A stretch of DNA of 64,000 nucleotides from an uncultured Cytophagia bacterium (GTDB taxonomy: Bacteria; Zhuqueibacterota; Zhuqueibacteria; Oceanimicrobiales; Oceanimicrobiaceae). Of this stretch, positions 35,620 to 52,366 are shown piece after piece; the first letter of the stretch is position 1; the number at the start of each line of letters is the position of its first letter. The translations under genes and the position numbers were made by a program. The stretch is from contig CAZIKB010000020.1 in assembly GCA_964539665.1 (NCBI GenBank), positions 526-64,525 on the forward strand, written 5' to 3'. Below the pieces are notes generated by a model. The model worked only from the letters and a program-made list of their open reading frames with translations. It did not search any database and was not told the origin of the DNA.

Positions 35620-35726
35620 GGGATTGGAGAAAATGACATTCTCATATATTTTTTATATTCACATACTAATAAAATTAACAGAAAAATCAATTACGTAATT
35701 TATATATCCAGCCCCCTTAATTGACT

Positions 35727-37151
35727 ATGAAAAAAAAGCATCCCAAAATCTTAATCATTGATGATGATGATAAAATTGTTTTCGCTATTCAACTGATTTT
35801 AGAAAGCGATGGATTTACAATTCTAACCGCTCAAAATGGCAAAGATGGCTGGGAAATGATAAAAAAAGAAGCGCCGGACATTACTATTCTTGACATTCAA
35901 ATGCCCGGGATGAGTGGACTGGAAGTGCTTGAAAAAATAGGCGAAGATAAAATAGACACTTCGGTAATAGTTATCACAGGTTTTGGAACCATGGACACAG
36001 CAATTCGATCCATGCAATTAGATGCCTTTGACTACCTTACCAAACCTTTAGACATGGAAAAAGTTAAAATATTGTGTCGAAGAGCTTTGGAAATACGTAA
36101 TTTAAAAAAAGAGATTCATGGATTACGGGCTCAGTTGGATGTTAGTTATGAAGAGGATACATTAGTCGGTAATTCTGGAACCATGCAGGAGATTTACAAA
36201 ACCATCGGCAGCATCACATCAACTCCAAACGATAGTTCCATTCTAATTCAAGGCGAAAGCGGTACAGGAAAAGAACTGGTTGCCAAGGCGATTCACAGAA
36301 ATTGCCACCGTTCTTCATTTCCTTTTATCGTAGTCAATTGTACTGTTTTAGTGGAAAACCTTTTGGAAAGCGACCTTTTTGGACATGAAAAAGGCGCCTT
36401 TACCGGAGCCCATGAACGAAAGATCGGTAGATTAGAATTAGGGAATAAGGGCACTATTTTTTTTGATGAGATTGGTGATTTGAGTATGAATCTCCAACAA
36501 AAGCTGCTTAGATTACTACAAGAACGCGAATTCGAAAGGGTAGGAGGCACTGAAACTCTTAAAGTGGACGCCCTGCTTATTTTTGCCACTCATCGGGATT
36601 TAGAAAAAGAAGTGGAATCTGGTAATTTCAGAGAAGACCTTTATTTCCGCATGAATGTCATTCCCATTAATCTTCCTCCGTTACGGGAGCGAAAAGAAGA
36701 TATTCCGATTTTAATCATCAATTTCCTGGCGAAGTACAACAGAAAGCTGGGCAAACCAGTGACGGCTGTATCAAAAGAAGCGATGCAGGCATTAGAAGCT
36801 TACGACTATCCCGGGAATGTCCGGGAATTGAGTAATCTCGTCGAACGAGCAATTGCCCTGAATCAAAAATCGGTGCTTACATTAGGATGCCTTCCAAACA
36901 TTCTTCAGCGTGAGGATGAACAGACCGATTTTAACATTCCAATCAAAGAGCTTAATTATATAAAGGCAAGAAAAGACATATTAAGGGCGTTTGAAAAAAA
37001 ATTCCTTTCCAAGCTTCTCAGGATCTACCATGGTAATGTGGCAAATGCTGCAAAACAAGCTGGAATGGAGCGACAAAGCTTCTATCGCCTTCTTAAAAAA
37101 CACGAAATTAATCCAAAACAATATTATCAATCGTCGTCACCGTCCGGGTGA
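35727..37151 (+). CDS. sigma-54-dependent NtrC-family response regulator (REC + AAA+ + Fis HTH)
   Basis: Receiver (ILIIDDDD...DITILDIQMPGMSG...KP), GESGTGKE, GAFTGA, and a C-terminal HTH (NVANAAKQAGMERQSFYRLLKKH). Confidence 0.85.
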   Translation: MKKKHPKILIIDDDDKIVFAIQLILESDGFTILTAQNGKDGWEMIKKEAPDITILDIQMPGMSGLEVLEKIGEDKIDTSVIVITGFGTMDTAIRSMQLDAFDYLTKPLDMEKVKILCRRALEIRNLKKEIHGLRAQLDVSYEEDTLVGNSGTMQEIYKTIGSITSTPNDSSILIQGESGTGKELVAKAIHRNCHRSSFPFIVVNCTVLVENLLESDLFGHEKGAFTGAHERKIGRLELGNKGTIFFDEIGDLSMNLQQKLLRLLQEREFERVGGTETLKVDALLIFATHRDLEKEVESGNFREDLYFRMNVIPINLPPLRERKEDIPILIINFLAKYNRKLGKPVTAVSKEAMQALEAYDYPGNVRELSNLVERAIALNQKSVLTLGCLPNILQREDEQTDFNIPIKELNYIKARKDILRAFEKKFLSKLLRIYHGNVANAAKQAGMERQSFYRLLKKHEINPKQYYQSSSPSG

Positions 37152-37361
37152 CAAAAAGTAACCTTGAATGAAAACATGTCCTAAGAGCTACATCGTTTTA
37201 CATTTCCTCGTAGTCGACATAAGCTGTTTTATTTTAGTAACTTAACTTTAATCCCAAAAGCATATTATTCTAACTCGGTTCTGGCGCAATACTTGCATGT
37301 TACTTATTTGAAACAATATCTTTACAAACAGTTTTTCCCTTCATCGATGGGAATCCATGCC

Positions 37362-37900: not shown

Positions 37901-38503
37901 ATGATTGAAGACGCGGGTACGACTAATGAACAAATAATCGACGAAACTCAGTTATCGAAAAATGAGCGTGAGGAAATAATTCAACTTGGACTGTTATCAC
38001 AAGACGGACAGGTACAACCCTCACCAATACATCCATCGGAGCGACCTCCAATCCCAAAACGAGATGTCAATGCAACAGAAGTGCTCAATGAGGCTTATAA
38101 ATACTTACCCAGGCCTTCTTCATTTTCGCGGGGTTTATGCCTCGACATAGGTGATTATAAAATTTTACTGATTTCCGGTACAGCAAGTGTAGATGATAGT
38201 GGCCGGACTGTCCATGTGGGAGATTTTCGGGCTCAGTGCTGGAGAACGTACCGCAATATTACCTCGCTTCTCGAATCTGAAGGTATGACCTGGCATGATA
38301 TCATTCGAACCTCTTGTTATTTGAGAGATATTGAACGGGATTATAATGATTTTAATGAGGTACGCACTGCATTTTTTGATTGGTTAAAACTTGATCCTCT
38401 GCCTGCCAGCACTGGTATACAGGCACGCATTTGCCGTGAGGATTTGTTGGTGGAGATCGAAGCAATTGCGGTTTGTCCATCAAATTCAAACAGTGTATCA
38501 TAA
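37901..38503 (+). CDS. RidA/YjgF (Rid) family protein with an ~75-aa N-terminal extension
   Basis: The C-terminal 120 aa match the Rid-family pattern ([11 protein letters not shown]...[10 protein letters not shown]...[20 protein letters not shown]...[10 protein letters not shown]...VEIEAIAV). Confidence 0.65.
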
Positions 38504-38525: not shown

Positions 38526-39425
38526 ATGGAGAGAGGAAAAAACAATAAGCAGGTAATTTCAAAACCTCCCGTTGGCAATCTGGTCGATCGGGAGGCAAAG
38601 CCTGAAGGAACTATCGTAAATGTAAGGGGGATTCCAATTGGCGGTTCAGAGGTAGTGGTTATGGCAGGGCCATGTGCAGTAGAGAGTCAGAAGCAATTGT
38701 TGACGATTGCTCAAACCGTACAGGCCAGCGGAGCCAGCATCCTGCGAGGAGGCGCGTTTAAACCTCGAACCTCGCCGTATAGTTTCAAGGGATTGAAAGA
38801 GGAAGGATTGAAATTACTTGCCATGGTTCGACAACAGACAGGTCTGCCAGTTGTTACAGAGGTCATGGACACACGCCTTGTCGAAATGGTATGCCAATAT
38901 GCTGATATACTGCAGGTCGGTTCCCGGAACATGCAAAGTTTTGCTCTCCTGGAAGAAGTGGGTTTGTGCCGCAAACCAATATTGTTAAAACGCGGCATGT
39001 CCGCTACCATTAAAGAGTTTCTGTTCGCTGCTGAGTATATCCTTAATCAGGGCAACGAGCAAGTCATCCTCTGCGAACGTGGAATTCGTACTTTCGATAC
39101 TGCCACACGAAACACCCTGGACTTAAACGCCGTGCCGGTATTAAAGAAGTTCAGCCACCTCCCGGTCGTCGTGGATCCGAGCCATGGAACAGGTCACTGG
39201 TGGATGGTTCCCTCGATGGCTAAAGCAGCAGTCGCGGTTGGTGCGGATGGTCTTTTGGTTGAAGTTCATTGCAATCCAAGTGAATCTGTGAGTGATGGCG
39301 CTCAATCCCTGCGCCCTGATAAATTTGATTTGATGATGAAAGAAATTAAACAAGTTGCCCAGGCTGTGGGGAGGGAAATATTTATTCCAGAATCCATCCA
39401 TAAACTGAGCAATCCAACCGTTTAG
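38526..39425 (+). CDS. 3-deoxy-7-phosphoheptulonate (DAHP) synthase, type I-beta (stand-alone catalytic domain)
   Basis: [78 protein letters not shown]. Start set at the ATG at 38526 with an upstream AGGA; the track ORF begins earlier at 38391. Confidence 0.85.
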
Positions 39426-39561
39426 GGATAGTAAGGAATCAACAACAATACTCAAGCTTAATAATTTCTTAAACGCAGATATTTAAATTTATTAAAAATG
39501 AAAATGTATGCATACTGCGAGTAGTACGTGTTCCAGCGTCAAGACTTTACGAGCGAAATTG

Positions 39562-41532
39562 ATGCTGTTCTTGACAATCAGTTCTTTTGTTCTTTTTTTT
39601 ATAGGATTTAATGCTTCTATTTATGCCCAATCTTTGCCGGTTCTTACTTTCGTGCAAATTCCTGCACAGGCAAAACCGGATATTCAGGCTGGAAAAACTA
39701 TCTACACCCCTGAAGACAGGTATGCAGACGGCGCACGGATAGTAATTCTTCGTCCATCTTTTGCTGAGCCGGTGAATCTCACGCCGAAATTTACCGCTGC
39801 CTGCGATCCTGATGTCTCCTTTGATGGAGAATCCATAATATTCGCTGGCAAAAGAAATCCGGACGATACCTGGCAAATCTGGAGAATGAACAAAGATGGC
39901 TCTCAGAAGGTACAAATCACCCACAACCCGGGCGACTGTATCGCTCCAGTGCACGCTGGAAACCGCTTCTATCTGAATGATCCACAGCCCACACCACAGA
40001 TAATTTATGGTAGTAATATGCACGATTGGGAAAACGAGCAAAATGCAGGACCGGCTTTTGCTTTATACGGCACAGATGCGGAGGGCAAGACAATCCATCG
40101 GCTGACGTTTAATCTCAGTAACGATTTTTCGCCTGATATTTTGCCAAACGGTCGCATAGTCTTCACCAGTTGGCAAAATTACGGAGATCGATACCAGCCA
40201 GACGGTATATTGGCGTTAATGGCTATTAACAATGACGGTACTGATTTCATGCCATTTTATGGAAATCATGAAATGCCGCGGTATAAGGACATGGCTCATG
40301 TTTCTGATTTCGACAGCCGGGTTTACTTTGTTGAATCAGATCACACCACCTGGCTGGGGGGCGGTGATATTGCCTATGTTTCCAGAAGTCGGCCGCTGCA
40401 TTCCTATCATCGATTGAGCCATACACGCAATGGAATATTTCACAGTCCCTGTCCACTTCCTGGCGGCGGTCTAATCGCATCATATCGTACTAACTCCCGG
40501 AATGCAATGTTCGGCATTCACCGTATTAATCCTGAAACCGGAAAACGGTTGCAGCAAATATTTGCAGAACCAGGCTGGCATTCCATAGATGCTCAGGTAC
40601 TCAGAGCGCACCCGAAAGTAAAAGGCCGTTCCAACTGGCTCATACCCGGATCAACTACTGGAGTATTCTATTGTCTGAATAGTTACAGAACAAACCTGTC
40701 TGAGGGGAATAATATCGCTCCCGGAACGATTAAACACGTACGGGTAGTGGAAGGGATACCGCTCAGGCAAAAAAATATTTTTCCAAAAAATCAGACTGAT
40801 GTCACAAATAATCCAGACCGAGAAACTTATTCAGCAACGGCTTTCGGCCCGCGGCGAATTCTGGGAGTGGCTCCAGTTGAGAAAGACGGGTCATTTCATG
40901 TCCGGGTGCCTGCAGAAATCCCGATTACGTTTCAGTTGCTGGATGAAAACTATCTGGCTCTTAGCCAGCAAAAAGCCTGGACCTGGGTGATGGGGAACGA
41001 AAATAGAGGTTGTATCGGATGTCATGAAGATCGGGAGATGTCTCCTCCCAACAAAATGGTTCAGGCGATTATTAAGCCCCCGGTAGAACTAACACTTCCA
41101 CCGGCAAAACGTCGAACTGTCGATTTTCGCTATCAAATTGCGCCACTTATCGAATCAAAGTGCGCTACTGCCGGGTGCCATATCTCCGGGCAGACAGCGC
41201 CGAATCTCGAATCAACTCAAAGAACATCGCCTGATGCAGTATTCAGTCAGGTGTATGAAACCCTTATACGTCCAATTCAAGGAAAAAATAATGAACGGTA
41301 TGTCAAGCCCGGAAATGCGATGGAGAGTCCCCTTATTTGGAATTTGTTTGGCAAACGAATGGGTTCAGCAAAAACGCCTTACACCGGCCAAATCACGCAA
41401 ATGCCTCCCCGGAATGTGTTAAGTCTCCGGGAACGCATTTTATTTATAGAATGGATTGATTTAGGCGCACAATGGGATTCGCGTGCCGCGATAGTATCGG
41501 AATCCCAATCAAACGAAGATAATATTAAGTAA
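39562..41532 (+). CDS. secreted PD40/TolB-like beta-propeller protein with C-terminal cytochrome-c-like region (one CXXCH and one CX4CH)
   Basis: Signal peptide; PD40-like repeats (DVSFDGESIIFAGKR...WQIWRMNKDGSQKVQITHNP, DFSPDILPNGRIVFTSWQ); CIGCHEDRE and KCATAGCHISGQ motifs. Confidence 0.6.
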   Translation: MLFLTISSFVLFFIGFNASIYAQSLPVLTFVQIPAQAKPDIQAGKTIYTPEDRYADGARIVILRPSFAEPVNLTPKFTAACDPDVSFDGESIIFAGKRNPDDTWQIWRMNKDGSQKVQITHNPGDCIAPVHAGNRFYLNDPQPTPQIIYGSNMHDWENEQNAGPAFALYGTDAEGKTIHRLTFNLSNDFSPDILPNGRIVFTSWQNYGDRYQPDGILALMAINNDGTDFMPFYGNHEMPRYKDMAHVSDFDSRVYFVESDHTTWLGGGDIAYVSRSRPLHSYHRLSHTRNGIFHSPCPLPGGGLIASYRTNSRNAMFGIHRINPETGKRLQQIFAEPGWHSIDAQVLRAHPKVKGRSNWLIPGSTTGVFYCLNSYRTNLSEGNNIAPGTIKHVRVVEGIPLRQKNIFPKNQTDVTNNPDRETYSATAFGPRRILGVAPVEKDGSFHVRVPAEIPITFQLLDENYLALSQQKAWTWVMGNENRGCIGCHEDREMSPPNKMVQAIIKPPVELTLPPAKRRTVDFRYQIAPLIESKCATAGCHISGQTAPNLESTQRTSPDAVFSQVYETLIRPIQGKNNERYVKPGNAMESPLIWNLFGKRMGSAKTPYTGQITQMPPRNVLSLRERILFIEWIDLGAQWDSRAAIVSESQSNEDNIK

Positions 41533-41546
41533 ATTCAGGAGTTCCA

Positions 41547-43190
41547 ATGTATAAAAAATATTGGTATCGATTCATTATTACTATTGGATACCTCAGTTTC
41601 TTTGCAGTTACTCAGCAGTTACATTCACAACAAGACCTGCCCAGACTGGTTGATGTAACCCAAAAAACCGGGATTACTTTTGTTCATAATCTCGGTGATG
41701 ATGAAATGAGTAACCTCATCGAATCAAACGCCGCCGGCTGCGCTTTTTTTGACTATAACGGAGACGGTAACCTGGATATTTATCTGGTCAATGGCGCCTA
41801 TATTGATAAAATCAGCGATATCCGCTGGCGTAAAAATAAAGGCAAACTCACTAATGCCCTGTATCGAAATAACGGCGATGGTACCTTTACTGATGTGACA
41901 ACAAAAGCCGGTGTTGGTCACAAAGGAATGGGGATGGCTGTAGCAACCGCTGATTTTGATAACGATGGGGATCAGGATATATTTATTACAAATTGGGGAC
42001 CCAATGTCTTTTACCTGAACAACGGTGACGGCACGTTTACGGATATTACCAAAAAAGCGAAAGTGATGAATGATCTATGTGGGCTTGGGATAACGTTTCT
42101 GGATTATGATCTGGATGGATATCTGGATTTATACGTCGGTAACTACGTCGAATACGATCCTGACTATCAATTTTTCTATGCCGCGAATAAATTCCCAGGG
42201 CCCCTGGCCTATCCTGGACAACCTGACATTCTTTACCATAATAACCGCAACGGTACTTTTACTGATGTGACTAAGAAGGCCGGCGTTTATAATCCGGAAG
42301 GCAGAGCTATGGGGGTGACCTCCTGTGATATCGATAATGACGGCGACTGGGACATTTTCGTAGCTAATGATGCCATGGAAAACTACCTCTACCGCAATAA
42401 CGGCGACGGAACATTTACCAATGTTGCGATACAGACTGCAGCCGGTTTTGGACAAAACGGTGAAGTCACCTCGGCCATGAGCGGGGAATTTGGTGATATC
42501 GATCTGGATGGTTTCGTGGACATTATCGTGCCCGATATGGCTTATGGCTGTATTTATAAGAATACCGGCACCGGCTTTTTCGAAGAAATGAGCGCCCGCA
42601 TGGGGCTGGCCACTGCCTGCGGACAATACACAAGCTGGTCCGGCAATTTTTTCGATCTTGATCATGATGGTTATGGGGATCTGTTTATTACCAATGGACA
42701 CCCGCACCGATTAATAGGAGAGGAAGATTTGATGCTGTTAAATAAATCCGGTATGCGATTTATTAATGTATCAAATGAAATGGGGCCGGATTTTCAAGAC
42801 AAATTTGTCGGCCGCGGCTCTGCGGTCGGAGATTTCGATAATGACGGTGATTTAGATTTACTGGTAGCCAACCTGAATGCTCGCCCCCGCTTGCTCCGTA
42901 ATGATGGCGGTAATAAGAAAAACTGGATTATGATTCATCTGATTGGAACCAAGAGCAACCGCGATGCCATTGGCAGCCGGATTCGATTAACCGCCGGCAA
43001 TATAACGCAAACCAAATGGCGGTCAGGCAATTCAGGCTACCTGTCGCAAAGTGATTATCGAATGCATTTTGGCATAGGCGATAATACCTACATAGACAAG
43101 ATCGAGGTACGCTGGCCAACTGGAAAAATCCAAATTCTCGAAAAAATTAAAGCAAATCAGGTGTTAACTGTTAAAGAACCAAAATTTTAA
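41547..43190 (+). CDS. CRTAC1-family protein, single module (FG-GAP + ASPIC/UnbV), 547 aa, secreted
   Basis: FFDYNGDGNLDIYL, DFDNDGDQDIF, DIDNDGDWDIF, DFDNDGDLDLL, and C-terminal ASPIC (NWIMIHLIGTKSNRDAIGSRIRLTAGN...SGNSGYLSQSDYRMHFGIG). Confidence 0.85.
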   Translation: MYKKYWYRFIITIGYLSFFAVTQQLHSQQDLPRLVDVTQKTGITFVHNLGDDEMSNLIESNAAGCAFFDYNGDGNLDIYLVNGAYIDKISDIRWRKNKGKLTNALYRNNGDGTFTDVTTKAGVGHKGMGMAVATADFDNDGDQDIFITNWGPNVFYLNNGDGTFTDITKKAKVMNDLCGLGITFLDYDLDGYLDLYVGNYVEYDPDYQFFYAANKFPGPLAYPGQPDILYHNNRNGTFTDVTKKAGVYNPEGRAMGVTSCDIDNDGDWDIFVANDAMENYLYRNNGDGTFTNVAIQTAAGFGQNGEVTSAMSGEFGDIDLDGFVDIIVPDMAYGCIYKNTGTGFFEEMSARMGLATACGQYTSWSGNFFDLDHDGYGDLFITNGHPHRLIGEEDLMLLNKSGMRFINVSNEMGPDFQDKFVGRGSAVGDFDNDGDLDLLVANLNARPRLLRNDGGNKKNWIMIHLIGTKSNRDAIGSRIRLTAGNITQTKWRSGNSGYLSQSDYRMHFGIGDNTYIDKIEVRWPTGKIQILEKIKANQVLTVKEPKF

Positions 43191-43205
43191 AAGAGAGTGA
43201 GAAAA

Positions 43206-46097
43206 ATGAGGAGATTTGCAGTTTTACTGTTTCTTCTAATCAGTATAACACTGACCTCAGGATGGAATTTATTCGGGCAGAAATCCAAAGACCGAATATA
43301 TTTGGGCGAGAAAGCCTGTCGTCCGTGTCATCATCTTGCAGGAAAACGAGATCAGTTCAATCCCTGGTGGCTGGCTAAACATTCCAAAGCTTATGCTGCA
43401 TTGGCGCTGCCGGAATCCAAACAGATTGCAAAGTTGTCAGGCGTTGATGTCGATCCTTACAAAAGTCCCATCTGCCTGGGATGTCATACTACCGCTTATA
43501 ACGTAGAAGCCTGGGAACGTGATGACACTTTTCATTTTGAAGATGGCGTACAATGTGAACTTTGCCATGGACCTGGCAGCGAATATATAGACGCCAGTAT
43601 TATGCTGGACCGGGAGAAATCCTTAGCGGCCGGTTTAAAAATACCGGTCGAACGAGACTGCATGGTTTGTCATAAGGAAAAAGGCTCCCACGTGGCGGTC
43701 CTGGATGTCAAAAAATTCAATTATAAGGAAGCGCTTAAGGAAATCGCCCACCCTGGGCACGGTGGATTCCTTAAAGAATTCTTTTTTCAAGTACAGCGAA
43801 TTCTCTATGAATGGTTCCCAAAAGATGAATTGCCTGTTGAGTCTCTGCTTGGTCCGAAATATGTTGGCGCTCTGGCATGTGGTAAATGTCATGGTATTAC
43901 ATCCGTTGGTCATCAATTTAGTAAATGGCGTTTCTCCAAACACGCCCGTACCTATGCCATCCTTAATACTGAGCGAGCAGCAGAAATTGCCAGTGAGATG
44001 GGATTGTCCGGCAATCCACAAAAGTTGGGAAAATGCCTGCAATGCCATACCACAGGCGCCGGAGAGCCTGCTGGTCGGTTCTCTGAAAGTTTCGATCCAT
44101 TCCAGGGAGTACAGTGTGAAAGCTGTCACGGCCCTGGAAGCGAATATATGGCAGACGCCATTATGCTGGATCCGGTAGCAGCCGCAGATGCCGGATTAAG
44201 AGACGTGAATAAGGAAATTTGTGTTAAATGTCACACCGAAGGTATTCATGGTCACTCTTTCGATTTTGAAACCATGTGGCCTGAGATCGATCACTCGAAA
44301 TGGCAAGAAGAATATTCTAATGTGGAATATAAAACTCCACTAAACCTGGCAATTACTCAGGATGGAAAGCGGTTATTTATCGCATGTGAAGCCTCTAACA
44401 GCCTTATTGTTGTGAATGCGGAATCTGAAAAAATACTGGCAGAAGTGGAAATCGGTACCCAACCGCACTTTGTTTGCTTTTCCCCGGATGAAACCCGCGC
44501 CTATGTAAGTAATCGCGGTTCCGACAATGTTTCAGTTGTTGATGCAAATACTTATCTGGTGCTATCGACAATTACAGTCGGGGATGAACCGCACGAGATG
44601 GCAACGAATAAAGCAGGAAATATTTTGTACATAGCCAATGCAGGCACCTACGACGTCTCCGTGGTCGATCTGGAAAAAGGCCAGGAAATTAAACGTCTGG
44701 CAGCATCCAGAGGTCCATGGGGTGTGGCCCGTTCGCCTGATGGCCAGTTTGTCTATGTTAGCAATAATTTACCCAGACATGGTAAATTCCGCACTCCAAC
44801 CGCATCTGAAGTGACTGTTATTGAAACAGACCGTTCAATTGTCAAACATCGATATACCGTGCCGGCGGCCAATTTAATCCAGGGAATTGCAATAGCGCCA
44901 AACGGTGAATTTGCGCTCACGACTTTAATCCGCACCAAAAACCTGGTTCCTATGACACGCAATATCCAGGGCTGGATTATTACCAACGGCATCGGTATTC
45001 TCTGGAAGGATGGTCGTGTGGATCAATTGCTGCTGGACAACGTGAGTGACTTTTTTGCGGATCCCACTGATGTCGTCTTTTCAAAAGACGGCCGGTACGC
45101 TTTTGTTAGCGGCGGTGGGGTCCAGGAAATCGCCATGATTGACATCAAGAAAATGAAACAGATTCTGGAACAGGCCACGGATAGCGAACTTATGGAAGTG
45201 CTGCCCAACCACCTTGGCATGAGCACGCAATATATTCTAAAACGGATTCCGGTTGGACAAAGTCCGCGAGGGATGGCGGTCGCTCCGGACAATAAATACC
45301 TGTACGTTGCCGACGGATTAGATGACGCCATTTCTGTTATTGATATCAAAAAACGGCAGCGAGTCAAAGTCATCGAACTCGGAGGCCCGCAAGAAATTAC
45401 CCAGACACGGTACGGCGAGCGTATCTTTCACAGCGCGGGGAACACCTTTACCCGACAGTTTTCATGCCATTCATGCCATCCGGATGGCGGCGTCGATGGA
45501 ATAACTTATGACATAGAACCGGATGGCCTGGGCTACAATCCTGTGGATAACCGCACATTGAGAGGTGTGAACGACACTGCTCCCTTTAAGTGGACCGGCA
45601 AAAATCCCACATTAAGACGCCAGTGTGGACCCAGACTGGCTGCATTTTTCACACGTATCGATCCGTTCACAGCAGAGCAATCCGCGGCGTTGGAACATTA
45701 CATCGTAACTATTCCCAGACCGCCAAACCGCTACCGAACCGGAGAAGAACTCACCCCAACTCAAAGACGGGGCAAACGGCTTTTCGAAAGGAAATACGAC
45801 AATTCCGGCAATGAAATTCCATTGAGTAATCGCTGCGATACTTGCCATTCACCGCCCTATTATACCAACCGGGAAATAGCCGACGTAGGTTCTGCATCCT
45901 GGCTGGATACAAATAGTAAATTCGACATCCCTCATCTCAACAACATTTATGCGACGCCACCCTATCTTCATGATGGACGAGCAAAATCATTGGAGGAAAT
46001 CTGGACGATTTATAACCCAAATGACACTCATGGTCTTTCAAATGATTTAACAAAAGACCAGCTCAATGATCTTATTGAATATTTGAAAACACTTTAA
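43206..46097 (+). CDS. ~10-heme cytochrome c fusion: two tandem tetraheme modules, a YVTN-type beta-propeller and a C-terminal di-heme CCP/MauG-like domain
   Basis: Eight CXXCH in two repeated sets (CRPCH, CLGCHTT, CELCHGPGSEY, CMVCH; CGKCH, CLQCHTT, CESCHGPGSEY, CVKCH). Propeller repeats (AYVSNRGSDNVSVVD, LYIANAGTYDVSVVD, VYVSNN..., LYVADGLDDAISVID). C-terminal CHSCHPDGG and CDTCHSPP. Confidence 0.75.
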   Translation: MRRFAVLLFLLISITLTSGWNLFGQKSKDRIYLGEKACRPCHHLAGKRDQFNPWWLAKHSKAYAALALPESKQIAKLSGVDVDPYKSPICLGCHTTAYNVEAWERDDTFHFEDGVQCELCHGPGSEYIDASIMLDREKSLAAGLKIPVERDCMVCHKEKGSHVAVLDVKKFNYKEALKEIAHPGHGGFLKEFFFQVQRILYEWFPKDELPVESLLGPKYVGALACGKCHGITSVGHQFSKWRFSKHARTYAILNTERAAEIASEMGLSGNPQKLGKCLQCHTTGAGEPAGRFSESFDPFQGVQCESCHGPGSEYMADAIMLDPVAAADAGLRDVNKEICVKCHTEGIHGHSFDFETMWPEIDHSKWQEEYSNVEYKTPLNLAITQDGKRLFIACEASNSLIVVNAESEKILAEVEIGTQPHFVCFSPDETRAYVSNRGSDNVSVVDANTYLVLSTITVGDEPHEMATNKAGNILYIANAGTYDVSVVDLEKGQEIKRLAASRGPWGVARSPDGQFVYVSNNLPRHGKFRTPTASEVTVIETDRSIVKHRYTVPAANLIQGIAIAPNGEFALTTLIRTKNLVPMTRNIQGWIITNGIGILWKDGRVDQLLLDNVSDFFADPTDVVFSKDGRYAFVSGGGVQEIAMIDIKKMKQILEQATDSELMEVLPNHLGMSTQYILKRIPVGQSPRGMAVAPDNKYLYVADGLDDAISVIDIKKRQRVKVIELGGPQEITQTRYGERIFHSAGNTFTRQFSCHSCHPDGGVDGITYDIEPDGLGYNPVDNRTLRGVNDTAPFKWTGKNPTLRRQCGPRLAAFFTRIDPFTAEQSAALEHYIVTIPRPPNRYRTGEELTPTQRRGKRLFERKYDNSGNEIPLSNRCDTCHSPPYYTNREIADVGSASWLDTNSKFDIPHLNNIYATPPYLHDGRAKSLEEIWTIYNPNDTHGLSNDLTKDQLNDLIEYLKTL

Positions 46098-46112: not shown

Positions 46113-47291
46113 ATGAATCGAATATTTATTATCCTGACAACATTCATTTTCCTTGCACCTCACGGCTGGTGTCAATCAGATACTAACATCACCATGGCGG
46201 GTGAGCCCTACGTTTATTCTAAATGGGAGACATTCACAAGCGAATCAACACATGATGGTCTAATCAGCGACCATATCTTTTTTCTGGAAGCAGATGGTAA
46301 TAGTTTATGGATTGGCACCGAAGGTGGATTGGTGCTATATGAGAAAGGCGCCTGGAAAAGTTGGACGGAGAAGGACGGCCTGCCGTGGAATGTGGTAATG
46401 GGAATCGCAAAAGATCCAAAAACCGGGGAATTGTGGCTGGCGCTATTTGGAGAAGGTATCGCCCGATTTAGCGGAGGCTACTTTCAACACTACACCCAAA
46501 TGAACAGCGGCTTAATAAATGATGTGGTGTATGGCATAGATATTCAAGGGGATTACGTGTGGGTTGCTACCACGGCTGGCATCAGCCGGTATAATCAGGT
46601 GTCCGGAGAATGGACCTTGTTCAATGAGAAACATGCTCCAATGGAGGAAGTTTGGACTTATAATGTAGACGCTGCAGAAGACAAAGTCTATTTTGCCGTC
46701 TGGGGTGGCGGTATTCTTGAGTGGGATGTGGCCACTGAAAGCTGGAATGTTTATCATGATCCTGATGGAGAAATGGAAATTGATTTATACCGGGATGACG
46801 GCCTAATTCATGTTATTACCACCGCTGCATCTTACATCGATGGTGTGCTCTGGGCTGCAACATACTTTGGATTGAGCCGATACGATGGCCGCAACTGGCG
46901 TGGGTATATGGATCATGACAGCGGCCTTCCCAGCAATTTCATAAATTTTACGGTAGGCCGAAACGGTACTTCAAGCTATAGCTGCACAGATAAAGGACTG
47001 GGAGTGTTAGTAGATTATAAAACCGATACCTGGGTCACATATCAGCGGGATGAGGAAGACGCCGAAACATGGACCGCCCATGTGATGGTTGGAAAAAAAG
47101 AAATTAAAACCGTGCCCACTAATCTGGATTTACCAAATCATTTCACCTTAGCTCTGGAATTTATGGGAAACGATTTATGGGTTGGCACCGGACATGGACT
47201 GGCCCGAGGCATTGGCATAGGTTATTACACAGGATTGCAAGCTAAAAATACTAATTCTGGAAAGATTAAAACCTCTGATTCTCAAAATTAG
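46113..47291 (+). CDS. secreted beta-propeller protein made of Reg_prop (two-component-regulator propeller) repeats, no output domain
   Basis: Repeats such as LWIGTEGGLVLYEKGAWKSWT, VWVATTAGISRYNQVSGEWTLF, LWAATYFGLSRYDGRNWRGY, LWVGTGHGLARG. Confidence 0.65.
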   Translation: MNRIFIILTTFIFLAPHGWCQSDTNITMAGEPYVYSKWETFTSESTHDGLISDHIFFLEADGNSLWIGTEGGLVLYEKGAWKSWTEKDGLPWNVVMGIAKDPKTGELWLALFGEGIARFSGGYFQHYTQMNSGLINDVVYGIDIQGDYVWVATTAGISRYNQVSGEWTLFNEKHAPMEEVWTYNVDAAEDKVYFAVWGGGILEWDVATESWNVYHDPDGEMEIDLYRDDGLIHVITTAASYIDGVLWAATYFGLSRYDGRNWRGYMDHDSGLPSNFINFTVGRNGTSSYSCTDKGLGVLVDYKTDTWVTYQRDEEDAETWTAHVMVGKKEIKTVPTNLDLPNHFTLALEFMGNDLWVGTGHGLARGIGIGYYTGLQAKNTNSGKIKTSDSQN

Positions 47292-47350
47292 AAAATCATA
47301 TTTAATAGTACAATATTTTGTATTTCAATATCTGCAGGAAGAAAAGAACC

Positions 47351-48763
47351 ATGAACAGATTACATATTTTATTTGCAATTATAGTTGTCGGGTGTACTTT
47401 CATATTCTGTTCTAATGTGAGTGCGCAGACCAGTGAATCGGTTTCTGCTACAAAATCCGACACAACATCATACGGCAAAACACCCATTGAATATGAACCT
47501 TATAGCCGTTTCGAAAAGCCATATAAAAGATTTTTCATCGACACCCTGGTATATCCCGGCTATGGGCGGCATATCCCAGTACCCGAACAAATTGACACGG
47601 TTAAAATAGGTTTTATCGGTCCCATTATTGGCTCTGTTTCTGAGTCTGCGGGAGGCCCGGATGAAATAAAATTAAAGGTGAACCAGCGAGTCGTGCGTTG
47701 GGATGGCTATCGGGCTTCTCATCTGGCGCCGATTGGGATTAAAATGTTTCAGGGTGCCCAACTTGCAATTGAACATGCAAATACAAACGGTGGCTATAAA
47801 GGAAAAGTACCCTATAAGCTGATTGTTCGTAACGACAACGGTAACTGGCGTTCTTCCGGAAGAGAGGTCATTACGCTTGCATATAAAGATAGCGTTTGGG
47901 CTATCCTTGGGACAGTGGATGGGGCAAATAGCCATATTGCCATACGCGCTGCTCTAAAAGCTGAAATTCCAGTTATGAATACTGCGGATACTGATCCCAC
48001 ATTTGTGGAAACCAGAATTCCCTGGGTGTTCCGATGCATCACAGACGACCGGCAGATGTGCTATCTACTGGCGGATTTCGCCTTTAAAAAATTGGGGCTC
48101 AAACGCATAGCTGCACTTCGTGCAACCAACCGCTACGGGCGCATGAGTATTGACGAGTTCCGGGACGCGGCCACGCGTCTTGGGTATCCCTTCAAGATCG
48201 AACTGCAATATCAAGAGGGCGATACGGATTTCAGCAGTCAGTTAAAGAGGATTCAAGCAATGAAGGCGGATGGTGTAATCACTTACGGCAACGCAATCGA
48301 ATCTGCTTTGATACTCAAACAAATGCGGGAAATGGGCATGGAGCAGTGGTTCTTCGGCAGCGATCGCATGGTTACACCTGAATTTCTTGAAATCGTCGAA
48401 GAGAATCATGGACGTGTAGCAGCAGGCTATCCGTATGATCCTACCAGTGAAGATGCTGAGTATCTGCAATTTGTAGAAGATTTTCAGAACCAGTATGGAG
48501 ATGCACCAGAAACATACGCCGCACATGCTTATGACGGCATGAATATGATTATTGCGGCCATTGAAAAAGCCGGATTGAATCGAGCACTCATTAGAGATCA
48601 ACTGGTTGCTATGTCCCAATATAAGGGTGTAACTGGCAGAAAAGAATTCGATGCGGTCTACAGCGATAGAAGTCCTGCTTTTTTAGCAATCTTTAAAAAC
48701 GGCAAATTCGAATATTATACCAAGGAAGAAATTTTCTCGGATAAAATTGATCTACCTCGGTAA
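47351..48763 (+). CDS. periplasmic solute-binding protein, Peripla_BP_6 / LivK-like family (orphan)
   Basis: Signal peptide, then KIGFIGPIIGS...GAQLAIEHANTNGGYKG...YKLIVRNDNGNW...LGTVDGANSHIA...IPVMNTADTDPT. Start set at the ATG at 47351 with an upstream GGAAG. Confidence 0.75.
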   Translation: MNRLHILFAIIVVGCTFIFCSNVSAQTSESVSATKSDTTSYGKTPIEYEPYSRFEKPYKRFFIDTLVYPGYGRHIPVPEQIDTVKIGFIGPIIGSVSESAGGPDEIKLKVNQRVVRWDGYRASHLAPIGIKMFQGAQLAIEHANTNGGYKGKVPYKLIVRNDNGNWRSSGREVITLAYKDSVWAILGTVDGANSHIAIRAALKAEIPVMNTADTDPTFVETRIPWVFRCITDDRQMCYLLADFAFKKLGLKRIAALRATNRYGRMSIDEFRDAATRLGYPFKIELQYQEGDTDFSSQLKRIQAMKADGVITYGNAIESALILKQMREMGMEQWFFGSDRMVTPEFLEIVEENHGRVAAGYPYDPTSEDAEYLQFVEDFQNQYGDAPETYAAHAYDGMNMIIAAIEKAGLNRALIRDQLVAMSQYKGVTGRKEFDAVYSDRSPAFLAIFKNGKFEYYTKEEIFSDKIDLPR

Positions 48764-48780: not shown

Positions 48781-50016
48781 ATGAAAACCCATCGATTGCT
48801 CTGGATTTTGTGGTTAGTTTTCTTCTGGACAGTCCAGATACAGAGTCAAACCAAAACCTCTGCTCAAACTGCTCACCAAAGAAAGCCACCAGGTGTTCTG
48901 GATTCACCTGTGAATTTTTCAGGATGGATAGGAACCAGCAGGAGTCCTGATCAGCTAAAAGAAATTCGTATTGGTTTTTTCGCACCGGTGGACCCGGATG
49001 ATCTGGTGGGCGCTTCTATGCTTAATGCTGCTGTGTTGGCGGTAGAAGAAGCAAATGCTGCGGGAGGATTCCAGGGCGTACCGTTCAGACTGGTTAAACG
49101 CTGGGCACACAAACCCTGGGGCGCTGGCTCCAAAGAAATGATTAAGCTGGTGTATCAGGACAGTGTGTGGGCAGTGATTGGATCTTTGAACGGAAGTGCA
49201 ACGCATGTCGCGGAACAGGTTGTAACCAAAGCGTGGGTACCTCTGCTCTCGCCAGTCTCGGCTGATCCGACGCTTACTTATATTCGCATTCCATGGATGT
49301 TCCGGCTACCTCCCGATGACCAGAAACAGGCGGAAGCTATTGTACACAAAGGAATTCAGGCGTTATCTCTGAATAATATTGGTCTCATCACTTCTACTGA
49401 TCACGACGGCCGTATATTTGCAAAGGAAACGCTCGCCACAATGAATGATGCACAGACTCCGCCAGTATTTCATTTTCAGTTGCCTCTGCCCGGGATTGAT
49501 TTTAATGATATCGTCCAACGAGTGCTGTCATTCAATCCTGATGGAGTCATTGTACGCCTGCCGTGGGGTGAAACTCTTGAATTGCTGAATCATTTTCAAC
49601 ACAGTGATTTTGATGTCCCCGTATTCATTCCCTGGATTCCGGGTTTGCAGGAGGCAGATTTGACAAATCAATACGATGGAGATATTTTCTTTGTGCAACC
49701 GTTTTCTGGAACGGGAAATCCAGTATATACCGCCTTCGCTCAAATTTATCGAGAGCGCTATGAAGCGAGCCCCACGCCTGGCGCCACCTACACCTATGAT
49801 GCTGTAAATATTCTGATCCAATCACTACAAAAAAGCGGATTAAACCGGGCCAGACTTCGGGATGCTATTGCCGGGATCGGCGATTTTCATGGCGCCACCG
49901 GTAAAATTTCCTGGGATAACGGCGGCGGAAATGTAGCAGAACCTGTTCTTCGGATTCTATCTGGAAAAGCACCGACCGTGAAAGGGAAAATGCAAAAAAT
50001 CAATATTTTGCATTGA
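48781..50016 (+). CDS. second Peripla_BP_6 / LivK-like solute-binding protein (paralog, orphan)
   Basis: Signal peptide, then IRIGFFAPVDPDD...LNAAVLAVEEANAAGGFQG...IGSLNGSATHVAEQV...VPLLSPVSADPTLT. Confidence 0.75.
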   Translation: MKTHRLLWILWLVFFWTVQIQSQTKTSAQTAHQRKPPGVLDSPVNFSGWIGTSRSPDQLKEIRIGFFAPVDPDDLVGASMLNAAVLAVEEANAAGGFQGVPFRLVKRWAHKPWGAGSKEMIKLVYQDSVWAVIGSLNGSATHVAEQVVTKAWVPLLSPVSADPTLTYIRIPWMFRLPPDDQKQAEAIVHKGIQALSLNNIGLITSTDHDGRIFAKETLATMNDAQTPPVFHFQLPLPGIDFNDIVQRVLSFNPDGVIVRLPWGETLELLNHFQHSDFDVPVFIPWIPGLQEADLTNQYDGDIFFVQPFSGTGNPVYTAFAQIYRERYEASPTPGATYTYDAVNILIQSLQKSGLNRARLRDAIAGIGDFHGATGKISWDNGGGNVAEPVLRILSGKAPTVKGKMQKINILH

Positions 50017-50097: not shown

Positions 50098-51426
50098 ATG
50101 TATAACACTCAATCTATTCAACGGGTTATCGATTTAACGGATCCTTCTAAAAACATTATTTATAATATGACAGTAGAAAAAGCCAGAGAGCTTGTTGCGT
50201 GTGGTAATCCAGAGAAAGTTCGCACCATTGACGGTCAATTCGCTATTGTAGCAAAGAAAGGCAAAAAAGTACGCCTGGCGCGCTCTATAGGAAGACCACT
50301 GCGTTATTTTATTGCCAAAAAAGCGGATGGCCCAAATCTTATCGTAGCAGACCGAATCGATACTATTTTCAATTATTTAAACAAAGAGAAAATTGACGAC
50401 CAATTTCATCCTTCATATACGCGTATGGCGCCAGCACATTACGTCACTGAAGTTGACCTTGTTGGTTGCCCGGATCCAAATCCGACTTATCAGAGATTTT
50501 TCACACCCTTAAGAAACACCCAAAAGCTGGATGTTGTTGATATTGGCTGCCTTTATATGCAGACCCTGTACGATGAAATTGTCAAATGGCTGCAAAACAG
50601 AGCCACAGAAGGTCCCATAGGAGTATGTTTTTCAGGCGGGATTGACAGCGGTTCGATTTTCCTGCTAACCTATAATGCGATGCTTAAACTTGGATTATCT
50701 CCGGCACGGCTTAAGGCTTTTACGCTTGCTGTTGAAGGCGGCGGTGATGATTTGGCTCAAGCAAAATGTTTCCTCGATAAACTTGATCTCTCTATGTTTC
50801 TGGAACCGATTGAAGTCTCAAAAGATGATGTGAATTGGCGGGATACGATTCGTGTAGTCGAGGATTACAAGCCTCTCGACATCCAGGCTGCAGCCATGAC
50901 TCTTGCCTTATATCGTGGTATTAGAAAGCGTTATCCGGAATGGCGCTTCTTTATTGACGGGGACGGCGGAGATGAAAACCTGAAAGATTATCCCATTGAA
51001 GAAAATCCTGAACTCACTATTCGCAGTGTCTTAAATAATTTAATGCTTTATCATGAAGGCTGGGGTGTGGACTCAATCAAGCATTCCCTGACCTATTCCG
51101 GTGGACTCAGTCGAGGTTACACACGCACCTACGCTACCGCAAGCCTGTTTGGCTTTGATAACTATAGCCCTTACACACTTCCAAACGTGATTGAGGTTGC
51201 GGAATCCATACCGTACGTGGCTTTAACAGAATGGAACCATGAGAAGTTGTATCGATTAAAAGGCGAGATTGTCTCCAAAGGTATAAAATCCATAACAGGT
51301 ATGGATATGCCTGTATTTCCAAAACGCAGGTTTCAGCATGGCGCTGCAACACATAGTGAGTTTGACAATTTGTTTCCCAAAAAACCTGCTGAGTACCGAC
51401 GAACTTTCTACAGTGTCTATGAATGA
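50098..51426 (+). CDS. asparagine-synthase-like PP-loop ATP-pyrophosphatase lacking the N-terminal Cys2 glutaminase nucleophile (442 aa)
   Basis: PP-loop GVCFSGGIDSGS. An AsnB-like N-terminal remnant (IDGQFAIVAKKGKKVRLARSIGRPLRYFIAK) with no Cys at position 2. Its stop overlaps the next gene's start. Confidence 0.6.
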   Translation: MYNTQSIQRVIDLTDPSKNIIYNMTVEKARELVACGNPEKVRTIDGQFAIVAKKGKKVRLARSIGRPLRYFIAKKADGPNLIVADRIDTIFNYLNKEKIDDQFHPSYTRMAPAHYVTEVDLVGCPDPNPTYQRFFTPLRNTQKLDVVDIGCLYMQTLYDEIVKWLQNRATEGPIGVCFSGGIDSGSIFLLTYNAMLKLGLSPARLKAFTLAVEGGGDDLAQAKCFLDKLDLSMFLEPIEVSKDDVNWRDTIRVVEDYKPLDIQAAAMTLALYRGIRKRYPEWRFFIDGDGGDENLKDYPIEENPELTIRSVLNNLMLYHEGWGVDSIKHSLTYSGGLSRGYTRTYATASLFGFDNYSPYTLPNVIEVAESIPYVALTEWNHEKLYRLKGEIVSKGIKSITGMDMPVFPKRRFQHGAATHSEFDNLFPKKPAEYRRTFYSVYE

Positions 51427-52366
51427 GGCTTCACCTGTTCAGCCTGATGATCGGTGGATATTAGCACAACGCCCATCGAAAAATTCTGTGAACGCCTGGC
51501 AGCCTTATGCTTATCTCGCAGAAAAAGAACGAATGCAAAACGGTGTGGTCGAAAATGTGGCAACCATATTTCTGACAAATCGTGAATGCCCATTCCGCTG
51601 CCTGATGTGTGATCTCTGGAAGAATACAACGGAACACCGAGTGCCTGAGGGAGCAATCCCAACACAAATTCAATACGCTTTGGAGCAGCTCCCACCAGCC
51701 TCACAAATCAAGCTGTACAATAGCGGTAATTTTTTCGATGATCAAGCGATTCCACCTGTCGATATCCCAGAGATCGCGAAGCTGATAGAGTCATTCGAAT
51801 CAGTCATTGTCGAATGCCATCCTCGGCTGGTGAGTAATCGCTGTCTGGCCTTTCGGGATTTATTACGATCTGAGCTGCAAATAGCAATGGGTTTAGAAAC
51901 CGTCCATCCTGATGTGCTCAAGAAATTAAACAAGCGCATGACGCTGAAAGATTTTGAGCATGCCGCGAATTTTCTCATAAATAATGACCTGTCAGTTCGA
52001 GCTTTTATACTGCTTGGCGCTCCCTATCTGAACGAAGCAGAATCAGTAATTTGGGCCAGGCGCTCAATAGATTTTGCCTTCGATGTCGGGGTAGAATGTT
52101 GTGTGATCATTCCAACGAGGAGTGGAAATGGTGCAATAGAACGGCTGCATAAACTCGGGTTATATGGCCCACCGAAAATTGCATCCCTGGAAGAAGTGCT
52201 TGAATACGGAATTCAGTTACAGCAAGGACGTGTGTTTGCCGACCTCTGGGATGTTGAGAAATTCGCAAATTGTAATCAATGCAGTGCACAGCGAATTCAC
52301 AGGATGGGCCAGATGAATTTCACACAAATGATAGCGTCAGTTATACATTGTAACTTTTGTTTTTAA
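51419..52366 (+). CDS. radical SAM enzyme (CX3CX2C), translationally coupled to the AsnB-like gene
   Basis: CPFRCLMCDLW motif. The ATG at 51419 overlaps the upstream TGA at 51424-51426. Extra C-terminal Cys residues (CNQCS, HCNFCF). Confidence 0.7.
   Translation: MNEASPVQPDDRWILAQRPSKNSVNAWQPYAYLAEKERMQNGVVENVATIFLTNRECPFRCLMCDLWKNTTEHRVPEGAIPTQIQYALEQLPPASQIKLYNSGNFFDDQAIPPVDIPEIAKLIESFESVIVECHPRLVSNRCLAFRDLLRSELQIAMGLETVHPDVLKKLNKRMTLKDFEHAANFLINNDLSVRAFILLGAPYLNEAESVIWARRSIDFAFDVGVECCVIIPTRSGNGAIERLHKLGLYGPPKIASLEEVLEYGIQLQQGRVFADLWDVEKFANCNQCSAQRIHRMGQMNFTQMIASVIHCNFCF

Follow-up and report, generated by a model that had tools for sequence, protein, structure and literature searches.

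Hydrazine synthase (HZS), the enzyme known from anammox bacteria such as Kuenenia and Scalindua, was for many years believed to lack relatives, and how it arose is still to be settled. According to Hagglund et al. (2025, Genome Biol Evol, PMC12758564), the HZS homologues of clade I are encoded by an alpha gene upstream, an FG-GAP/CRTAC1 gene in between and a beta-gamma gene, followed by two ABC substrate-binding genes downstream. At its N-terminus, the beta-gamma protein of this clade has eight additional haem motifs that are assigned to two c554 domains, and examples are Syntrophobacter fumaroxidans, Thermogutta terrifontis, Aquisphaera giovannonii and Paludibaculum fermentans; O. terrae is a further published carrier. 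As key HZS residues are not conserved in the homologues, these are held in the same text not to be anammox enzymes. In an earlier study (Dalcin Martins et al. 2023, FEMS Microbiol Lett, PMC10732223), hzsABC-like genes are described from Phycisphaerae UBA1845 and KSB1 metagenome-assembled genomes (MAGs), and a broader family of HZS-like enzymes with other substrates is proposed. The present work concerns a gene at positions 43206..46097 (+) of a 64,000-nucleotide stretch of contig CAZIKB010000020.1 from an uncultured Cytophagia bacterium; this whole stretch is called the window, and all coordinates refer to it. Its product is probably the beta-gamma-like subunit, with ten haems, of a periplasmic haem enzyme made up of several proteins, which is predicted to be a distant homologue of HZS and not itself a hydrazine synthase. 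Judged by its architecture, gene order and residues, the locus corresponds to clade I as described by Hagglund et al. (2025).

The open reading frame (ORF) ends at 46097 on the forward strand and can start either at a GTG at 43197, giving 966 aa, or at the ATG at 43206, giving 963 aa, which is the start used for the identical public gene product (P0001). Residues are numbered here from the GTG. An earlier note on this DNA had counted about ten haem motifs in a three-part protein, and both points hold: the ORF has exactly ten CxxCH motifs (residues 41, 93, 120, 155, 228, 280, 307, 342, 757 and 880), a motif scan of the translation found no other Cys-rich motif, and the chain is made up of c554-type modules, a 7-bladed propeller and a C-terminal di-haem domain. 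The N-terminus reads in the translation as a Sec-type signal peptide (residues 1 to ~27, MRKMRRFAVLLFLLISITLTSGWNLFG, 43197..43277, +), with an inferred cleavage site, and the protein is therefore predicted to be periplasmic; a hydrophobic N-terminus is present in all homologues. All ten CxxCH motifs, as well as W799, C810 and H945, are invariant in 30 of 30 full-length homologues, in which the propeller loop 576-597 is kept too. A structural model was built with AlphaFold2 (AF2) from a 34-sequence alignment. The propeller is modelled well and the c554 modules moderately, with residues 757-845 having a pLDDT <50.

The relationship to HZS is evident from the family models. The best NCBIfam matches of the beta-gamma-like protein are hydrazine_BC (the top match, E 1.6e-59), hydrazine_beta and hydrazine_gamma, all of them scoring below their equivalog cut-offs (201.8 against 1250, 180.8 against 560 and 67.2 against 625 bits, respectively), as does hydrazine_alpha on the alpha-like protein encoded upstream (235.1 against 800 bits). 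The identity given in the earlier note was right at the level of the superfamily, but missed the HZS relationship that is apparent from hydrazine_BC, from chains B and C of the Kuenenia structure (5c2v_B and 5c2v_C) and from the alpha homologue upstream. Residues 377-723 (44325..45365, +) form a 7-bladed YVTN-type beta-propeller that is homologous to HZS-beta. The 28 strands of the AF2 model, most with a pLDDT >90, and a score of 115.1 bits for the YVTN repeat model TIGR02276 (cut-off 27.85, 4 stretches) bear out the propeller-like middle region proposed before. HZS-beta aligns over its whole chain (5c2v_B, E 1.2e-37; 1.4e-53 with a family profile) and is also the top Foldseek match of the model, with a target TM-score of 0.89. 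Furthermore, the loop 576-597, which aligns with the tunnel loop of HZS-beta, is nearly invariant. The names lactonase, YncE and DUF1513 used in public databases reflect generic propeller matches and were rejected, HZS-beta being the best match by both sequence and fold.

The C-terminal domain (residues 735-966; 45399..46097, +) is of the HZS-gamma/cytochrome c peroxidase (CCP) type, an assignment based on 5c2v_C and on conservation. HZS-gamma (5c2v_C) aligns with both halves of the domain (E 5e-16 for the single sequence and 3.4e-26 for the family profile), whereas CCPs and MbnH align in the PDB search with the C-terminal haem domain only (1iqc, E 1e-5, or 1e-6 with the family profile; 3o5c, 1.6e-5, and 6e1c, 8.8e-7, both with the profile). 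Among the PDB matches, the N-terminal, gamma-I haem domain aligns only with HZS-gamma. The Pfam model CCP_MauG (PF03150) scores 15.1 bits (E 0.037), below its gathering score of 25.6, several homologues carry precomputed PF03150 matches, and NCBIfam matches to TIGR04039 (MbnH, 8.7e-6) and TIGR03791 (MauG, 0.002) are weak. By sequence, the domain thus belongs to the CCP/MauG/MbnH/HZS-gamma di-haem superfamily. The CHSCHPDGG and CDTCHSP motifs that had been singled out in the earlier note are both present, and its CCP/MauG-type assignment stands at superfamily level (1iqc, 3o5c, 6e1c), although HZS-gamma is the better match; likewise, of the domain models searched, PF13435 and TIGR02276 exceed their cut-offs and CCP_MauG does not.

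The site of haem gamma-I is C757-H758-S-C760-H761, and that of haem gamma-II is C880..C883-H884 together with the invariant H945. Within the domain W799, Q809, C810, R813, L814 and D822 are invariant and P812 is nearly so. W799 accompanies the two haem c sites (757 and 880), and its equivalence to the bridging Trp of CCP and MauG is taken from Hagglund et al. (2025). As read from the sequence alignment only, H945 aligns with the His of the 'DMHG' motif of HZS-gamma, and residues 884-966 contain no conserved Met. H758 (45468-45470), inside the CHSCH motif, is invariant in 34 of 34 aligned homologues and is Ala in Kuenenia HZS-gamma.

The comparison with HZS was extended to single residues, with their roles taken from PMC12758564 and PMC12607021 and with chain-to-precursor offsets derived from the haem motifs (gamma +39, alpha +27; the beta offset is inferred). 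Both haem motifs of gamma are kept, and Glu122 and Glu176 of HZS correspond to D776 and D822. Cys165 of gamma, which in HZS forms a third covalent bond to haem gamma-I, is kept as C810 (chain-C residue 126) in 30 of 30 homologues, and C810 probably forms the third thioether to haem gamma-I here. Other residues of the HZS active sites are not kept. Asp168 of gamma, the distal acid and proton donor at haem gamma-I for which Fourier-transform infrared spectroscopy shows protonation on reduction (PMC12607021), aligns with L814, or with R813 in an alternative gap placement, and there is no Asp or Glu in 811-817. His144 of gamma falls in an insertion that is missing here, its site being occupied by the invariant W799; a Trp at this site is reported for HZS homologue clades by Hagglund et al. 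(2025). The loop that carries Glu253 of beta, the Mg-binding Glu of the HZS tunnel loop, is present and aligned to PKNWLPVCEAENG, but the candidate Glu positions are R588 and I590, and the same loss is reported for homologues (Hagglund et al. 2025).

The alpha subunit of HZS also has a full-length homologue, encoded two genes upstream of the beta-gamma-like gene (39508..41532, +; the public call starts at 39562). Besides the NCBIfam hydrazine_alpha match, the protein scores 92 bits with Pfam PF18582 (HZS_alpha), and its only PDB match is 5c2v_A, in four stretches spanning the chain (E 4e-56 for the single sequence, 4e-83 for the profile). It is composed of a six-bladed propeller region, the HZS_alpha middle domain and the putative haem sites CIGCH (502-506) and CATAGCH (552-558). 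In HZS, Tyr591 is the proximal ligand of haem alpha-I, and His587 and Cys303 bind zinc. The equivalent of Tyr591 is missing here: the CIGCH of haem alpha-I is followed by E-D-R-E and then by a ~50-residue deletion without a Tyr, and the Glu residues at +1 and +4 after CIGCH are invariant among the alpha-like homologues. The position of Cys303 is taken by H254, which is His in 22 of 28 homologues. At the alpha-II site Kuenenia HZS-alpha has a CxxCH, whereas the CATAGCH found here (41161-41181) is a CX4CH, a form common to 26 of 28 homologues, among which no conserved distal His follows this motif. The alpha-like protein thus appears to retain a putative second haem site, formed by C552..C557-H558. 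One homologue, from the complete Fidelibacterota genome CP070638.1 (6513-8315 of the fetched locus L001, P0131), lacks CIGCH, with F..FP in its place, and has a plain CxxCH at alpha-II; this reflects either the genuine loss of the putative catalytic haem or an error in the sequence. With alpha Tyr591, gamma Asp168, gamma His144 and beta Glu253 all replaced or missing, the beta-gamma-like protein is best regarded as a distant homologue of HZS beta and gamma that is very unlikely to make hydrazine.

The N-terminal part of the protein contains two cytochrome-c554-type tetrahaem modules recognized by Pfam PF13435, motif positions and conservation. Module 1 comprises residues 33-190 (43293..43766, +; CxxCH at 41, 93, 120 and 155) and module 2 residues 220-368 (43854..44300, +; CxxCH at 228, 280, 307 and 342). 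PF13435 (Cytochrome_C554) scores 113.4 bits over two stretches, against a gathering score of 20.8, and Nitrosomonas europaea c554 (1bvb) aligns with the modules, module 2 included, in the PDB sequence search; the NCBIfam c554 equivalog model reaches 52 bits against a cut-off of 400. The two four-haem sets occur in the same order, as described in the earlier note, with identical motif spacings of 52, 27 and 35 residues and one GVQCExCHGPGSEY each, which includes the VQCExCHGPGSEY signature named there. However, they are not near-identical, as had been stated: identity is 36% at the amino acid level over 151 residues (BLASTP E 5e-31), and 50% at the nucleotide level over aligned codons, with 39% at third positions.

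The proposed intragenic tandem duplication is nevertheless supported by this self-comparison. The alignment score of the two modules lies at z = 40 relative to composition-preserving shuffles and, with the haem-motif Cys and His fixed in place, still at z = 17.9, so that the repeat is no by-product of the haem motifs, and low-complexity coincidence is ruled out as its source. Furthermore, 30 of 30 full-length homologues from several phyla contain the two modules at nearly unchanged spacing, the sequence particular to each module being orthologous, which makes the duplication ancient and dates it to before the beta-gamma-like family spread. A recent or lineage-specific duplication is ruled out by this and by the 36% and 50% identities. 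Module 2 is missing from a minority of homologues, those of ~815 aa. The linker between the modules holds a ~17-residue insertion (FFFQVQRILYEWFP..., residues 195-212, ~43779-43832) that occurs in none of the aligned homologues. Each module has three non-motif His residues for its four haems (H62, H165 and H185, which are invariant, in module 1; H249, H351 and H366, which are conserved, in module 2). Because of this ratio each module is predicted to hold three bis-His haems and one haem whose sixth position is free or otherwise occupied, as in c554. In c554 itself, one haem is five-coordinate.

From these features a path of electrons can be proposed. The eight c554-type haems would act as an electron wire and store linked to soluble periplasmic carriers, and would pass electrons to the bis-His haem gamma-II (H884/H945) and from there, across the invariant W799, to the catalytic haem gamma-I. 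The latter would be ligated by His761 and probably bound through a third thioether to Cys810, in a pocket lined by Gln809, Arg813, Leu814 and Asp822, and a small oxidant, either an N-oxide or a peroxide, would be reduced there. From there, the conserved propeller loop may guide a product or intermediate to the alpha-like subunit, whose haem is canonically ligated by His. The near-invariance of this loop and the conservation of the alpha partner suggest that the two haem sites are coupled within one complex, as in HZS. Because the cross-link Cys is kept and is the most specific feature in common with HZS-gamma, reduction of nitric oxide (NO) or hydroxylamine is a tentative first guess for the reaction at gamma-I, held at somewhat under even chances. 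Reduction of peroxide is a serious but less likely alternative, given the loss of Asp168 and the CCP-like Trp, Gln and acid, with other or oxidative chemistry making up the remainder.

Several observations weigh against this proposal or against its nitrogen-oxide version. The reading of NO reduction to hydroxylamine is weakened because Asp168 is not kept and no acid is found in 811-817, and the CCP/MauG-type Trp and the Gln-x-x-Pro motif point to peroxide chemistry. The model has a pLDDT <50 for 757-845, so the geometry of the gamma-I pocket is tentative. Neither a quinol dehydrogenase nor any other obvious electron donor is encoded in the conserved cassette, the 64-kb window contains no genes of nitrogen-oxide metabolism, and in the gene tables of four other genomes the flanking genes are mostly for glycan and peptide degradation. 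In addition, the literature yielded no functional or expression data for any member of the beta-gamma-like family.

Of the other explanations, the one that survives best, though unlikely, is a di-haem cytochrome c peroxidase with its own electron supply, which would reduce H2O2 to water at the gamma-I-equivalent haem via the octahaem wire and so protect the periplasm of a microaerotolerant anaerobe. The PDB matches to bacterial CCPs (1iqc and 3o5c), the PF03150 matches on some homologues and the invariant W799 at the position of the CCP/MauG Trp all agree with such a role. Q809 and P812 form a Q-x-x-P that, with the invariant D822, presumably resembles the distal Gln/Pro/Glu arrangement of CCPs. 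However, CCP_MauG stays below threshold, CCPs align with the C-terminal haem domain only while the N-terminal one aligns only with HZS-gamma, and the sixth ligand of gamma-II aligns with the HZS His and not with the CCP Met. The cross-link cysteine, Cys810, is a feature of HZS-gamma that is not known from CCPs. Furthermore, a simple peroxidase would have no use for a conserved haem partner of the alpha type, two substrate-binding proteins and three further propellers.

An oxidative system, in which the substrate-binding proteins deliver a nitrogen compound such as hydroxylamine, an amine or an amino acid for oxidation at the alpha-like or gamma-I haem and the c554 modules remove the electrons, is less probable again. 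In nitrifiers, c554 accepts electrons from hydroxylamine oxidoreductase (HAO), and the c554 family is thus a known HAO electron acceptor; the two substrate-binding proteins conserved in the cassette are of the HAAT family, of amino-acid/amide type, a gene of the RidA-like imine-deaminase fold is frequently linked, and amino-acid catabolic genes flank the cassette in one genome. Against this, the enzyme is periplasmic whereas the RidA-like protein lacks a signal peptide, and there is no precedent for amine oxidation by the present fold.

A MauG/MbnH-like modifier, which would install a cofactor or cross-link in the alpha-like, CRTAC1-like or Reg_prop product by high-valent haem chemistry, is very unlikely. 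MauG-family enzymes are usually encoded beside their protein substrates, and the partner genes here are strictly conserved, as is the MauG-type Trp; weak matches to MbnH (6e1c 8.8e-7; TIGR04039 8.7e-6) and MauG (TIGR03791 0.002) were also found. Yet HZS-gamma, the best homologue, serves as a stable catalytic subunit instead of a maturase, a once-per-protein maturation would have no need of an eight-haem wire, and the Tyr ligand of MauG is not evident. It is equally far-fetched, at present, that the seven-gene cassette represents a widespread non-anammox enzyme that still carries out hydroxylamine or N-N chemistry, for example with NO being reduced to hydroxylamine at the Cys-cross-linked gamma-I haem and this hydroxylamine undergoing condensation, at the alpha-like haem, with an amine or amino acid that the substrate-binding proteins supply; if true, hydrazine-type bond formation would take place in ordinary heterotrophs of many phyla. 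That the protein is a true hydrazine synthase of a cryptic anammox bacterium is extremely improbable, since, despite three co-localized subunit homologues and a conserved equivalent of gamma Cys165, the hydrazine_BC, alpha and gamma models stay far below their equivalog cut-offs, Tyr591 is lost with a ~50-residue deletion, Cys303 is His, Glu253 is Arg or Ile, His144 is Trp and Asp168 is lost, the 64-kb window has no HAO/hydrazine dehydrogenase (HDH)-type gene, and Hagglund et al. (2025) conclude likewise for the homologues.

A protein search returned more than 120 clusters (90% identity) at 57-81% identity to the query, nearly all close to full length, from Fidelibacterota, Gemmatimonadota, Omnitrophota and Calditrichota, and annotated publicly only as 'YVTN/lactonase/DUF1513/multihaem'. 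Among named relatives, MAGs of Fidelibacterota and Gemmatimonadota come closest, at 70-76% identity, and full-length relatives at ~49-53% include Thermoguttaceae, a Thermogutta sp. MAG and Bryobacterales. Scanning a single genome for each species gave at least 572 pattern-matching stretches with at most two per gene, which corresponds to at least roughly 290 loci. The best 80 of these, nearly all matching along almost the full query length, span Gemmatimonadota, Omnitrophota, Acidobacteriota, Planctomycetota, Verrucomicrobiota, Chloroflexota (Anaerolineales), Deltaproteobacteria and Bdellovibrionota. The architecture, which the earlier note had taken to be uncommon, is thus found in hundreds of genomes from at least 8 phyla and has already been published. 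When the gamma-like domain alone was searched against 1.84 billion representative proteins, 109 clusters were found at E ≤ 1e-30 and 1757 at E ≤ 1e-10. Its near relatives include many proteins of ~600-670 aa in which a propeller is combined with a gamma domain and N-terminal haems are missing, so the octahaem form is one branch of a large family. True HZS-gamma is absent from the best 150 listed matches, being too weak to appear there (5e-16 against the much smaller PDB set).

For synteny, 84 loci were fetched and searched with the proteins of the window, counting only loci with enough flank. The same order and orientation was found for the alpha-like gene in 65 of 65 testable loci, for the CRTAC1-like gene in 70/72, for the Reg_prop gene in 73/74 and for the genes of substrate-binding proteins 1 and 2 (SBP1 and SBP2) in 65/66 and 55/58, respectively, and gene tables from four genomes agree with this order. 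The median identities are 36% (alpha), 49% (CRTAC1), 51% (beta-gamma), 55% (Reg_prop), 49% (SBP1) and 33% (SBP2). The RidA-like gene lies near the cassette in 35 of 57 testable loci and, at 63%, is more conserved than the alpha-like gene.

At the present locus, the gene between alpha-like and beta-gamma-like (41547..43190, +) encodes an FG-GAP/UnbV_ASPIC (CRTAC1-like) propeller protein by Pfam. The Reg_prop gene (46113..47291, +), which starts 16 bp downstream of the beta-gamma-like gene and is about equally conserved, encodes a secreted Reg_prop-type beta-propeller protein (Pfam Reg_prop; E 8.5e-19 to the 4a2l sensor domain in the PDB). It is followed by the genes of SBP1 (47318..48763, +; likely start an ATG at 47351) and SBP2 (48781..50016, +), both matching the HAAT/Peripla_BP_6 families, and no permease or ATPase gene is found near them at the locus. 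The gaps between the ORFs downstream of the beta-gamma-like gene measure 7-27 bp, and the cassette genes form a tightly spaced run that is probably one operon. Directly downstream of the SBP2 gene, an asparagine-synthase-like gene (50098-51426) overlaps by ~90 bp with a radical-SAM gene (51338-52366), the latter related to the archaeosine RaSEA family with a score of 111 bits that is below cut-off; in another locus (L004) a radical-SAM gene with Radical_SAM and BATS domains is found at the equivalent position.

Upstream of the alpha-like gene lie the genes of a DAHP synthase (38526-39425; 448 bits, above cut-off) and of the RidA/chorismatase-like protein of YjgF fold (37901..38503, +; Pfam Ribonuc_L-PSP), which has no signal peptide. 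The Rid family and FkbO/Hyg5 models both reach ~50 bits on the latter, below their cut-offs. In Omnitrophota and other loci (L003 and L004 among them), the RidA-like gene encodes a two-domain, FkbO/Hyg5 chorismatase-like protein of ~375 aa, and the RidA-like gene is followed by a genuine DAHP synthase gene at the present locus as well as in certain relatives, namely Fidelibacterota, Gemmatimonadota and a few more. Farther upstream lie the genes of a receiver-domain protein, a PAS histidine kinase (33763-35619) and an NtrC-type activator (35721-37151); the kinase and the activator have no conserved counterparts beside the cassette in the loci of other genomes. An intergenic sigma-54 promoter-like site, TGGCGC-N5-TTGCA (TGGCGCAATACTTGCA, 37282..37297, +), directly past the activator gene, has one mismatch to the consensus and may drive the gene run into the cassette. 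It is a lead only, as a motif scan of the whole window gave 38 matches against 32.6 expected, which is not above chance.

CRTAC1-like (FG-GAP/UnbV_ASPIC) genes occur seven times in the window (16406-20125, 20591-24352, 24969-28685, 30952-32760, 41547-43190, 52389-54053 on the reverse strand and 54400-57993), three of them encoding double-length forms of ~1240 aa and one a fusion to TPR repeats. They are preceded by a SusC-like TonB-dependent receptor (9995-13501) and an unannotated 530-aa ORF (13588-15180). Directly before one of them lies the gene of a membrane-anchored multihaem cytochrome (28857-30947) with a hydrophobic stretch at its N-terminus, four CxxCH motifs and a single CX4CH (CGTSGCH), which is a possible quinol-linked partner. 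As a conserved electron donor it was rejected, being found in none of 84 related loci (flanks of at most 6-10 kb).

The architecture has already been described and is widespread, and the present copy, which probably stems from the FCB group, is a further member of a recently described family. It is, however, a clean and complete example of the closest known HZS relatives, with three subunit homologues and four conserved accessory genes. Because the family is found in hundreds of species-level genomes from at least 8 phyla with its gene order almost perfectly kept, it very probably carries out a common periplasmic redox reaction. Identifying this reaction would show the chemistry from which hydrazine synthesis evolved, and might reveal a further step of the nitrogen or peroxide cycles in the environment.

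When the locus is placed beside the known systems, the c554 modules share with N. europaea c554 (1BVB/1FT5; PF13435) the order of the tetrahaem motifs and the three distal His residues per four haems, but occur here as two tandem copies fused to an enzyme, with a partner that is not HAO. With the CCP/MauG/MbnH enzymes (PF03150; 1IQC, 3O5C, 6E1C), the C-terminal domain has in common two CxxCH motifs ~120 residues apart with a conserved Trp between them, and an alignable C-terminal haem domain. It differs from them in its sub-threshold Pfam score, in an N-terminal catalytic haem domain that is not detectably CCP-like by sequence, in the extra cross-link Cys, in probably having His instead of Met or Tyr as the sixth ligand of the second haem, and in being fused to a propeller and an octahaem wire. 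The hzsABC-like genes of Phycisphaerae and KSB1 resemble the locus in a fused hzsBC-like gene, an hzsA-like gene upstream and their occurrence in non-Brocadiales bacteria; in the accessible sections of that study no N-terminal haem modules are mentioned, and anammox was raised as possible for the Phycisphaerae MAGs (Dalcin Martins et al. 2023), whereas nothing at the present locus supports anammox. Anammox HZS itself (chains B and C of Kuenenia 5C2V, fused in Scalindua; NCBIfam NF052342) shares the 7-bladed propeller with the same inserted loop, the di-haem gamma domain with a Cys at the third-thioether position and a His at the gamma-II sixth-ligand position, and a co-localized alpha gene. 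The differences are an identity of only ~25%, ten haems here instead of two, the loss of Asp168, His144 and Glu253, an alpha partner without Tyr591 and the Cys303 zinc ligand, a reversed gene order with alpha first, and a periplasmic location in organisms not known to have an anammoxosome. The closest likeness is to clade I as set out in the accessible part of Hagglund et al. (2025), with the same alpha, FG-GAP/CRTAC1 and beta-gamma order (39508-41532, 41547-43190 and 43197-46097), the eight N-terminal haem motifs, gamma Cys165 being kept, Trp in place of His144, Tyr591 missing and two substrate-binding proteins downstream. The present copy stems from an uncultured lineage not named in that text, and it adds to the description given there the Reg_prop gene, the RidA/chorismatase-like gene, the CX4CH form of alpha-II and the loss of Asp168.

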